Shown piece by piece: positions 9,901 through 12,900 of a DNA stretch of 64,000 bases. How positions within the stretch are numbered: position 1 is the first letter of the stretch; every line of letters starts with the position of its first letter. Position numbers: made by a program. Origin of the DNA: Escherichia coli (GTDB taxonomy: Bacteria; Pseudomonadota; Gammaproteobacteria; Enterobacterales; Enterobacteriaceae); NCBI RefSeq assembly GCF_002854065.1, contig NZ_CP024150.1; one strand, written 5' to 3'.

Positions 9901-12900
9901 GGATTGTAAGGAGCATCAGAGTCATACCAATGCTGTTCTTCTAACGAGCAGCCAATAAATTATTCACTACATATCGATATGAGATATCCAAATTATTCAA
10001 TAATGACCGCATAACCATGTCTGTAATTTGTATTATTAGATCACTTTGTTCAGAGCTAATTTCCTTTACCATAAAATGCTCATACATATTATTATATGCT
10101 TCATGCTCATTTTCTGTTGCATGGCGTCCACATAAATATGGGAGATGAATATTATATTTACTTTCCACCTGTAAAGCTATATCTCCAACATGAGAGAAAA
10201 ATTCTTTTCCACTTAACTCCAGTATCATCATAAACCAGAACCTGATAACAGGATCTCTGTGTTTTAATCCGAACAAAGAAAACTTAACTATATTTTCTCT
10301 ATGCATATCCATATCTGCATTAAGAAAAATAAACTCAAGAGTATCACTGGCACTCCAACGTAACATATCATCAAGTTGAAGTGACTTCCAGTCATGATAA
10401 AATAAACGGCTATGCTCTGACAGGTGTAATACATAATCATTTATAATCTTTTCACTTTCTGATTCAGGCTGTTCATATGTAAAAACATATTTATTAATAT
10501 CTCTATACCCCATAATATCAACAATCCAAAGAGGTATGAAACTTTTCAATTTCAATTGAGGGTCTATTGAGGTGTTAATCAGCCATTTGAAGAACTCATG
10601 ACTCGATATTTTTTCCAGGTAATTGTTTATATGTTCAATATGTCTACCATCGTTATGGATTTTGTTTTCTATCACAAACTCAGGGTATATAGGTGCAACA
10701 TTTTTCCCTACAGGTAATGATTCAAAAAATGACGGATGACTTCCATTAAGAACATAACTGGACAGGTAATTATAAAAAGAGTCATGAATTCCTTCAAATA
10801 TATCAAACATTCTCTTTGAGAGAGTAGCCATTTTCTTATAAGAATCTGGTGACAACTCTATATTTTCAAAAACACCTTCTGACTTCCACACATGTCCATT
10901 TTCAAGATTAAGGTGAAATGTTCCAAAATAACGGAGTGATATTCCCAAATGATTGGCAACTTGATCAGCAATAGGACTAATTTTTGAAAAGAATATATTA
11001 CCGCAAGTTTCTCCTGACTCGGAGTGAGAATATCGAAGTATTGGTTCTCCTCCATCATCGACACAAAGTCTCATAAAATCAATACCAAATTTTCGGAAAC
11101 ACTCCATTTCTCGACTAATAAACAACCAGTATATAACATCACTTGCTTTCCAGTTAAGTTTGTCATCTATATATAGCTTCCTCCAGTCTTCCAGAAACAA
11201 TCTTGAATGTGTTTCATCCTCTATTGTTCCACCATTTATAACAGATTTATATTTATTATCATTGTTATCAAACCTGATAACCCATTTATTCATGTCTCTG
11301 AAGTTCATTATGAAATGAGCCATAACAGGAGCAAATAATAGTTTGTCTTTCAACGCTATACAATCTGAAGAAATCAAACTATAAAAATCATGTTGTTCAA
11401 GCTCCTTTCGCTGTTCATCCCTAAATTGATAAAATTTCTTCATAGTGATATCTCCTGTTACTCAATAATATATAGAATACCAATACAGTAGTTTTATCAG
11501 CGATAATACAAAAGAAATTTAATATATTGTTAATAGATATCACTAACCAGAATCTACTATCAAGAACACATTATTTGAAAAAGATCACAAATTTAATTCC
11601 CCTCATGTCCACTTTGATAAAAATATAAAACTTTGTGTCAAAGACTTGTTACGAGCTAGATTCTCCGGTCATAGCTACCAACAGAACCAGAAAGCAAAAA
11701 AGCCCAACCTCACCAGTTGGACTTTTATACCTAAATGTCCAGACGGCGGAGGAATTATGCACTGGAACTTGATCCTACCCACGTAATATGGACACAGGCC
11801 TAAGCGAGGTTCTGGTTTTCAAATTGTTCCGGACTGAGGCCGCCACACCAACTGTGCCGCCGCCACCGATTGTAATCACATTCGATATAATTAAACACCG
11901 TTGCCCGCATTATTTCCCGGCTGATAAAGTGTTCTCCATGGATACATTCCACTTTCAGCGAATGAAAGAAGCTTTCCACGCAGGCATTATCGTAGCAGCA
12001 ACCTTTTGCGCTCATACTTCCACGCAGATTATGCCGCTTCAGTTGCGCCTGATAATCTGCTGAACAGTACTGGCCTCCACGGTCCGTGTGAACGATAACG
12101 TTCCGGGGCCTCTTGCGCCGCCACAGCGCCATCTGCAGGGCATCGCAGGCCAGTTGCGCCGTCATGCGTGGCGACATTGACCAGCCAATAACGACACGTG
12201 ACCACAGGTCAATGACCACTGCCAGATACAGCCAGCCTTCATCTGTACGTAAGTACGTGATGTCTCCTGCCCACTTCTGGTTCGGGCCACTGGCGTAAAA
12301 ATCCTGCTCCAACAGATTTTCTGACACAGGCAGGCCGTGTGCGCGGTAGCTGACCGGGCTGAACTTCCGGGAGGCCTTTGCCCTCAGTCCCTGACGGCGC
12401 AGGCTTGCCGCCACGGTTTTTACGTTAAAGGGGTAACCCTGAGCACGCAGTTCATCCGTCAGGCGTGGGGCACCGTAACGCTGTTTTGACCGGGTAAAAG
12501 CCGCGAGAACAACGCTGTCGCAGTGTTGGCGGAACTGCTGACGCGTGCTTATCCTTGTCCGCCGCTGACACCACGTATTACCAGCCCGTTGCGGGCCACC
12601 CGGAGCACGCGGCACATTGCTTTGATGCTGAACTCAGCCTGATGTTTTTCAATAAAGACATACTTCATTTCAGGCGCTTCGCGAAGTATGTCGCGGCCTT
12701 TTGGAGGATAGCCAGCTCTTCATCCCGTTCTGCCAGCTGGCGTTTGAGACGTGCAATCTCGGTAGACATCTCCAGTTCACGTTCAGAAGACGTCTGCTGA
12801 TTTTGCTGTTTACTGCGCCAGTTGTAGAGCTGTGATTCATACAGGCTGAGTTCACGGGCTGCGGCAGTAACACCGATGCGTTCAGCAAGCTTCAGGGCTT

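Follow-up and report, generated by a model that had tools for sequence, protein, structure and literature searches.

A plasmid-borne Escherichia coli protein with two fused heme-oxygenase-like domains related to the nitrile synthase AetD

A 64,000-nucleotide stretch of Escherichia coli contig NZ_CP024150.1 (assembly GCF_002854065.1), referred to here as the window, contains at positions 9941 to 11443 an open reading frame (ORF) for a 500-aa protein. A domain of approximately 235 aa occurs in it twice, as a tandem duplication, and the protein belongs to the heme-oxygenase-like (HDO) superfamily, by fold and, for its N-terminal half (N-half), also by its metal ligand set. It is most likely an uncharacterized O2-dependent amino-acid oxidase. 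More specifically, with a probability of roughly 0.6, it is a soluble enzyme of two fused HDO domains that oxidizes an aromatic amino acid and is built as a covalent pseudo-dimer. The comparison rests on AetD, an HDO that turns 5,7-dibromo-L-tryptophan, and also L-Trp, into indole-3-carbonitrile (PMC10654658, PMC11611611, PMC11869266), and on the AetD homologue SktA, which converts tryptophan into skatole, cyanide, and bicarbonate (PMC11869266).

HDO enzymes are a young and quickly growing class that has repeatedly yielded unprecedented chemistry, and all AetD-related homologues besides AetD and SktA have been reported as being of unknown function (PMC11869266). The present family adds a fusion in which a canonical HDO domain is joined to a second one whose site is conserved but deviant. 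The searchable literature contained no mention of the protein accessions and no report of tandem or didomain HDOs.

Domain duplication and relationship to AetD

The ORF is real and intact, and both of its domains are under purifying selection. As the original prediction had read it, the ORF is AT-rich (approximately 32% GC; GC fraction of 0.32 over positions 10001 to 11000); it starts with ATG and is uninterrupted in the window. The coding sequence was 99.9% identical to WP_044789362.1 of plasmid NZ_AP027791.1. Ratios of nonsynonymous to synonymous substitution (dN/dS) were calculated by the Nei-Gojobori method against diverged enterobacterial orthologues with 86%, 79%, and 64% amino-acid identity. 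These ratios were 0.11 to 0.16 overall, 0.09 to 0.11 for the N-half, and 0.13 to 0.20 for the C-terminal half (C-half). The linker between the halves gave 0.60 in the 86% comparison (cluster P0002) and 0.12 in the 79% comparison.

Residues 1 to 253 and 254 to 500 were 31% identical over 173 aa (BLASTP, E = 9e-24). Family profiles of the two halves, built like all column counts given below from 38 diverse homologues with 30 to 86% identity, aligned over 226 columns with a probability of 100% (hhalign, E = 2.9e-50). Residues 1 to 235 are homologous to residues 266 to 500. The two internal repeats of the original prediction were therefore borne out, but the repeated unit is the domain of approximately 235 aa and not a module of approximately 55 aa. 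The most conserved stretches of both halves were residues 92 to 104 and 357 to 369, with the consensus LDxxLGWxASDxL. Motif 1 (see the table) covers the core-helix-1 ligand H79 as well as a segment equivalent to the dimer-interface region of AetD.

No match to the 500-aa protein was found in Pfam-A or NCBIfam. In a sequence search of the Protein Data Bank (PDB), AetD was the sole match (phmmer, E = 3.4e-18), with query residues 1 to 231 aligned to AetD residues 1 to 229 and the alignment starting at Met1 of both proteins. The family profile matched AetD with greater significance (E = 3.5e-37; profile positions 1 to 238, AetD residues 1 to 236), and the profile of the C-half alone also matched AetD (E = 1.4e-19). 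Similarity to AetD was therefore significant over a full domain, as expected for a protein related to the AetD/SktA clade. The family, which had gone unrecognized at first, is indeed absent from curated libraries but is recognizable as a member of the HDO superfamily, and it is not a well-characterized housekeeping family.

Structure prediction, which had been suggested as a check, gave an AlphaFold2 (AF2) model from the 38-sequence alignment with a predicted local distance difference test score (pLDDT) of 92.1 and a predicted template modeling score (pTM) of 0.92. The model consisted of two all-helical HDO bundles joined by a low-confidence linker (pLDDT of 57 to 71 at residues 241 to 270). 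The pTM indicates a fixed interdomain arrangement in the predicted structure. In a Foldseek search of the PDB, the top 21 matches were all AetD chains, with template modeling scores (TM, normalized to the target) of 0.81 to 0.88; TenA, CADD, PqqC, UndA, HmuO, and PolF followed with TM of 0.4 to 0.65. Both halves were shown, in the predicted model, to have the seven-helix HDO fold of three core and four auxiliary helices. These results agree with the metal-binding helical domain that had been proposed from the sequence, and the conserved His, Asp, and Glu residues of the first motif include the ligands D76 and H79.

The same results bear on the effector-type repeat that the original prediction had offered as its other option. 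It is very improbable that short functional repeats make the protein a secreted effector or toxin. Such a role would suit a gene that lies on virulence plasmids (the IncF type resembling those of enterotoxigenic E. coli [ETEC] and the ColV plasmid pS88) beside mobile elements. However, the repeats are whole enzyme domains, and the N termini of the protein and of AetD, a soluble bacterial enzyme, align colinearly. Similarity to effector, defense, or phage families was not found (PADLOC and PHROGs profiles, no match at E ≤ 1), and free-living Myxococcota, Actinomycetota, and Comamonas carry homologues within biosynthetic-looking clusters.

Predicted metal sites of the two halves and proposed function

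Alignment placed D76, H79, E145, H177, E181, and H184 of the N-half at the positions of the AetD ligands D76, H79, E140, H172, E176, and H179, and the complete set of three His and three carboxylate ligands was thus found in the N-half. These residues were conserved in 38, 38, 37, 38, 37, and 35 of the 38 homologues, respectively. In AetD, H79, H172, and E176 coordinate Fe1, along with the substrate amine and carboxylate, and Fe2 has the ligands D76, E140, E176, and H179; replacement of any of these iron ligands by Ala abolishes activity (PMC10654658). F48 and Y172 of the N-half were invariant in the family alignment, and F44 was at least 90% conserved. F48 takes the place of an auxiliary-helix Glu ligand of SznF and RohS, freeing Fe1 for chelation of the amino acid (PMC11611611, PMC10654658). 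The AetD counterpart of Y172, Y167, hydrogen-bonds the substrate carboxylate, and F44 stacks on the substrate indole (PMC11611611). Pocket residues that differ from those of AetD were G144 (M139 in AetD), C147 (A142), and F151 (I146). By alignment, the N-half was shown to hold an intact set of the residues that would form an AetD-type diiron site and chelate an amino acid.

This ligand set also weighs on the improbable reading that the protein is not an oxidase but a ligand-binding, metal-binding, regulatory, or self-sacrificing protein comparable to TenA, PqqC, or CADD. The fold does match TenA, PqqC, CADD, and HmuO, at weaker scores; the enterobacterial copies have no pathway context; and the ORFs of this region in pS88 showed no iron regulation (PMC3438092). 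Opposed to these points are the full AetD-type set of three His and three carboxylates and the substrate anchors, which are kept across phyla, and the TM values of 0.5 to 0.65 for TenA, CADD, and PqqC versus those for AetD. The P450 partner and the methyltransferases beside relatives (described below) likewise favor small-molecule chemistry.

The metal site that had been suspected across both repeats is complete in the first copy but partly lost in the second. Of the canonical ligands, the C-half keeps H344 (38/38), E409 (37/38), and H441 (38/38). The position of D76 is an invariant Leu (L341), the position of the bridging Glu (E176 in AetD) is His in 27/38 homologues and Asn in the E. coli protein, and the position of H179 is unconserved, with a one-residue deletion in the E. 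coli protein. The set of three His and three carboxylates was accordingly not found in the C-half, and with L341 at the D76 position and no equivalent of H179, this half is predicted to be unable to form an AetD-type diiron site. Pocket-equivalent positions were nonetheless invariant or nearly so, namely, W306, D309 (for F44), Y313 (for F48), Y436 (for Y172), and R440. Judged from the alignment columns, simple decay would not be expected to leave such a pattern. The C-half may hold a mononuclear site comparable to that of FlcD, or a ligand-binding site.

FlcD of Pseudomonas aeruginosa sets the precedent for a domain of HDO fold that has lost Fe2 ligands and works with one iron, two His, and one carboxylate, with an Arg near the vacant site (PMC11363339). 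The C-half resembles it in keeping two His and one Glu and in the invariant R440 beside H441. Unlike the C-half, FlcD does not occur in a tandem fusion, and a specific sequence relationship to FlcD was not detected. The FlcD motif E-H-X-H-V-R has no counterpart in the C-half, where the six canonical positions read L-H-E-H-(H/N)-x, and R440, although adjacent to H441, is not at the position of the FlcD Arg. SznF is likewise a multidomain HDO, whose second metal-binding domain performs a follow-up step. It differs in that the partner domain is a cupin and the HDO site has three His and four carboxylates, and its Foldseek match was weak (TM of approximately 0.3).

These comparisons frame a possible, though clearly less probable, alternative to the pseudo-dimer: a bifunctional enzyme with two sites, in which the N-half would be a diiron oxidase and the C-half a distinct catalytic center for a consecutive step. 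That center would hold mononuclear iron (H344, H441, E409, and mostly H445 in relatives) or, like PqqC, be metal free. The alternative draws on a C-half pocket that is near-invariant yet unlike that of the N-half (D309 for F44, Y313 for F48, L341 for D76, and R440 beside H441) and on the low dN/dS of the C-half. Mononuclear HDOs also exist: FlcD lost two ligands, and an Arg occludes its Fe2 site (PMC11363339). In addition, the AetD reaction is thought to take more than one round of oxidation (PMC13108848). Against the alternative, the FlcD motif is absent, and position 445 varies (N, E, K, and others) in the enterobacterial and mycobacterial clades, so that metal binding by the C-half is at most putative.

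The preferred explanation of the second domain is structural. AetD is homodimeric in solution and in crystals (PMC10654658, PMC11611611), with an interface formed by part of auxiliary helix 3, a two-residue sheet at T95/M96 included (PMC11611611). From this homodimer, and from the fact that in both halves the stretch aligned with its interface (residues 92 to 104 and 357 to 369) is conserved best, we infer a covalent pseudo-dimer in which one protomer has become specialized. Tandem duplication of an AetD/SktA-like gene would have produced the two-domain fusion. The N-half would assemble a labile Fe(II)2 cofactor and bind a free aromatic L-amino acid, tryptophan being the leading candidate. Substrate binding would trigger O2 activation and formation of a peroxo-diferric intermediate in the N-half, and the outcome would be an oxidative attack on the aminopropionate side chain: decarboxylation, or cleavage or rearrangement of the kind carried out by AetD and SktA. 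The C-half would replace the second protomer of the AetD homodimer rather than supply a second diiron center, possibly while serving as a second site. The enterobacterial gene would act alone, as a monocistronic accessory gene moving among plasmids with the dqlB/AgrB type I toxin-antitoxin locus.

Several points weigh against the pseudo-dimeric oxidase. Its geometry, like the oxidase function of all members of the tandem family, is a prediction. Identity to AetD is only approximately 24 to 30%. AetD and SktA have identical ligand sets and different products (PMC13108848); since they turn one substrate into different products, the sequence reveals neither the substrate nor the product of the E. 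coli protein. Invariant W306, D309, Y313, L341, H344, E409, Y436, R440, and H441 argue for a C-half site with a function of its own. No halogenase, P450, or other pathway gene was found near the enterobacterial copies examined. Finally, the ORFs without a known function that lie between sitA and sopA in pS88 (pS88026 to pS88031) showed no significant change under iron depletion, serum, or urine (quantitative reverse transcription-PCR; PMC3438092); by position, the HDO gene is probably pS88029.

Among characterized enzymes, AetD of Aetokthonos hydrillicola (PDB 8JI2 to 8JI7, 8TWN, 8TWT, and 8TWW) shares with the N-half the fold, the six ligands, F48, and the Y167 and F44 contacts. AetD is a homodimer of approximately 240 aa per chain, whereas the E. 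coli protein carries two paralogous domains in one 500-aa chain. No aetF-type halogenase, tryptophanase, or aetB-type P450 lies near the E. coli gene. SktA of Nostoc punctiforme, compared here by its published description only, shares the AetD-like clade and the predicted ligand set, and uses free tryptophan in E. coli without a partner enzyme (PMC11869266). Its expression gave E. coli an odor of skatole. Unlike the E. coli protein, SktA is single-domain, cyanobacterial, and encoded in a cluster that includes a Trp halogenase and a flavin monooxygenase (PMC11869266), and its product set of skatole, cyanide, and bicarbonate cannot be assumed for the E. coli enzyme. Three features of the AetD and SktA enzymes, the single-domain homodimer, the halogenase cluster, and a known product, are thus missing from the E. 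coli protein.

A more detailed version, which as a joint proposal is rather unlikely, would make the protein a stand-alone, O2-dependent enzyme of conjugative E. coli and Salmonella plasmids (ColV, IncX1, and ETEC-type IncF) that cuts or rearranges the side chain of tryptophan, or of a different aromatic amino acid, in free form. The product would be an indole-type volatile or nitrile (skatole, indole-3-carbonitrile, or an aldehyde), perhaps with cyanide. Its second module would be non-diiron, either mononuclear or metal free, and would perform or control a second step. Were this so, the protein would provide an aerobic route not known in enteric bacteria. Conversion of tryptophan to skatole, nitrile, or cyanide-type products would be relevant to gut and host chemistry and to plasmid fitness. 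If it does not occur, the protein would still be a natural and easily expressed test case for the evolution of HDO dimers into asymmetric pseudo-dimers.

Relatives and their gene neighborhoods

An exhaustive search of 1.84 billion representative sequences returned 320 relatives at E ≤ 0.001. The tandem architecture was kept in more than 100 homologues of 494 to 552 aa from several phyla; the nontandem relatives among the 320 were single-domain AetD/SktA-like proteins of approximately 240 aa that matched the N-half. Tandem proteins of approximately 500 aa with 30 to 48% identity were found in Piscirickettsia (on mobile DNA), Comamonas, Mycolicibacterium, Actinomadura, Amycolatopsis, Streptomyces, Sorangium, Polyangium, and other Myxococcota. 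All of these proteins are unnamed.

In Comamonas antarctica (locus L005), a translationally coupled cytochrome P450 gene (9554 to 10897) overlaps the stop codon of the HDO gene and is followed by a major facilitator superfamily transporter gene. The P450 (L009, 5289 to 6578) beside the HDO gene of a Sorangium sp. was 58% identical to that of Comamonas, and the Sorangium locus also holds an O-methyltransferase, a flavin adenine dinucleotide (FAD) oxidase, and a glycosyltransferase-methyltransferase. The HDO-P450 pair is therefore conserved between a betaproteobacterium and a myxobacterium, loosely recalling AetD and AetB. As a substrate clue the P450 gave little, with generic CYP51-, CYP120-, and ApyO-like similarity in the PDB and NCBIfam, all below cutoffs. 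In Amycolatopsis orientalis (CP016174, L011), two tandem-HDO paralogues lie back to back (7001 to 8509 and 8520 to 9986), with a P450, a DUF6875 protein, and two methyltransferases encoded around them; in the second paralogue, the N-half site is missing its last His. The locus looks like an uncharacterized biosynthetic cluster. The Comamonas, Sorangium, and Amycolatopsis contexts point to secondary-metabolite chemistry. Other copies of the tandem family were orphans, and no halogenase was present in any gene context examined, whether enterobacterial or from distant relatives.

Candidates for separately encoded halves (a split-gene, or Rosetta-stone, arrangement) were considered and rejected. 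For P0143, the contig end lies 11 nt from the start, and no evidence of adjacent split genes was obtained. For P0135 the distance is 146 nt, and none of the frames in the 145 nt up to the contig end codes for an N-half. P0135 (248 aa; metagenome contig ERZ27314257 k141_1116327, L018, 146 to 892) carries an H-x3-H motif and may be a solitary C-type domain, as a single case.

The locus and its spread among enterobacterial plasmids

Features of the locus are collected in the table. The position of the terminator-like hairpin 36 nt past the stop codon makes the gene monocistronic. In the Shine-Dalgarno region, the GG.G core was invariant, and AGGAG was kept in 3/4 of the aligned upstream regions (the P0010 copy reads GGGCG). 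The reported adjacency to an IS3-like element was confirmed; on the upstream side, approximately 325 bp separate the edge of IS3 from the HDO start codon. Between the IS3 end and the upstream region of the HDO gene, a second terminator-like hairpin (11698 to 11726, 12-bp stem) was predicted on both strands; it may shield the gene from IS3 read-through. An 18-nt inverted repeat (11436 to 11453 and 11535 to 11552) was considered as a 5' untranslated region hairpin that would sequester the ribosome binding site and was rejected. Its folding z score was -0.59 versus shuffled sequences, a diverged Salmonella copy showed no compensatory changes, and the repeat at the ribosome binding site and start codon is probably due to chance. 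A search of the locus against Rfam gave only the neighboring AgrB antisense RNA and nothing inside the HDO gene.

Table. Features of the tandem HDO gene and its flanks (window positions)
Feature	Position	Strand	Basis or remark
CDS, tandem HDO protein (500 aa)	9941..11443	-	Stop codon 9941-9943
N-terminal AetD-like HDO domain, ~residues 1-235	10739..11443	-	AetD similarity, ligand conservation, AF2 pLDDT >90
Interdomain linker, ~residues 236-265	10649..10738	-	Poor conservation, low model confidence
C-terminal diverged HDO-like domain, ~residues 266-500	9944..10648	-	AetD profile match, N-half versus C-half hhalign, dN/dS
Motif 1, residues 77-102, ETHSRLFLEDWRKLYIDDKLNWKASD	11138..11215	-	Alignment to AetD residues 77-100
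Motif 2, residues 343-367, EHSRLFYHDWKSLQLDDMLRWSASD	10343..10417	-	C-half counterpart of motif 1
N-half core-helix-3 motif, Y172-x4-H177-x3-E181-x2-H184	10892..10930	-	Aligned with AetD Y167, H172, E176, H179
C-half core-helix-3 counterpart, Y436...R440-H441-ATENEH447, one-residue deletion	10103..10138	-	Half-versus-half alignment, column counts
Shine-Dalgarno sequence AGGAG, 8 nt 5' of ATG	11452..11456	-	Sequence reading
Terminator-like hairpin, 36 nt past stop codon	9882..9905	-	Hairpin prediction
IS3 copy	11769-13029		99.7% match to second IS3 copy
AgrB antisense RNA (RF02891)	9470-9557	+	Rfam, 61.5 bits
dqlB, DinQ-like type I toxin gene	~9049-9144	-	Just beyond the common block, downstream of the HDO gene

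The DNA of the gene was found in 284 PLSDB plasmids (261 from Escherichia, 22 from Salmonella, and 1 from Shigella), 256 of which were predicted to be conjugative. Among 5,426 complete E. coli genomes, 264 (approximately 5%) contained the gene, and 263 of 268 copies were plasmid borne. Carriers included the ColV plasmid pS88 of extraintestinal pathogenic E. coli (UniProt B7LI34), plasmids of avian pathogenic E. coli, IncX1 plasmids of approximately 40 kb, and IncF plasmids. Hundreds of plasmids sequenced from E. coli and Salmonella carry the gene. In pS88 it has stood as an unexplained "conserved hypothetical" since 2009; the E. coli copies, like every homologue, are always annotated as "hypothetical protein." A chromosomal copy lies between phsA and sbcB, likewise with no biosynthetic genes around it, and matches a protein of Salmonella enterica subsp. 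arizonae. Many database entries for the protein, as in protein clusters P0007, P0011, P0012, and P0040, are shortened forms of 286 to 388 aa, some with hundreds of members (e.g., in Salmonella Kentucky), which are either contig-end artifacts or genuine truncations or pseudogenes in some lineages.

The block common to different replicons corresponded to window positions 9469 to 11757 and comprises the AgrB antisense RNA and the HDO gene with the region upstream of it. The HDO gene and the dqlB/AgrB locus were adjacent in IncF, ColV, and IncX1 plasmids, and they seem to travel as one small module. A 35-nt direct repeat at 9221 to 9255 and 9467 to 9501 (89% identical) suggests a second Agr-type antisense copy.

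Over the stretch compared, window positions 1 to 23445 were 99.99% identical to NZ_AP027791.1, a conjugative IncFIA/FII plasmid from human feces in Viet Nam. In its annotation over this stretch, a LuxR-type regulator accompanies a type IVb pilus operon; sodC, a NERD-helicase gene, and RelE/ParE and NadS toxin-antitoxin genes are also annotated. Elsewhere, the NZ_AP027791.1 record holds a gene resembling those for the B subunits of cholera toxin and heat-labile toxin (LT), a cvaC remnant, and a microcin B17 cluster in which IS2 is annotated between the genes for the TOMM (thiazole/oxazole-modified microcin) precursor and a YcaO-like protein. A plasmid of the NZ_AP027791.1 type is an ETEC-like virulence plasmid mosaic.

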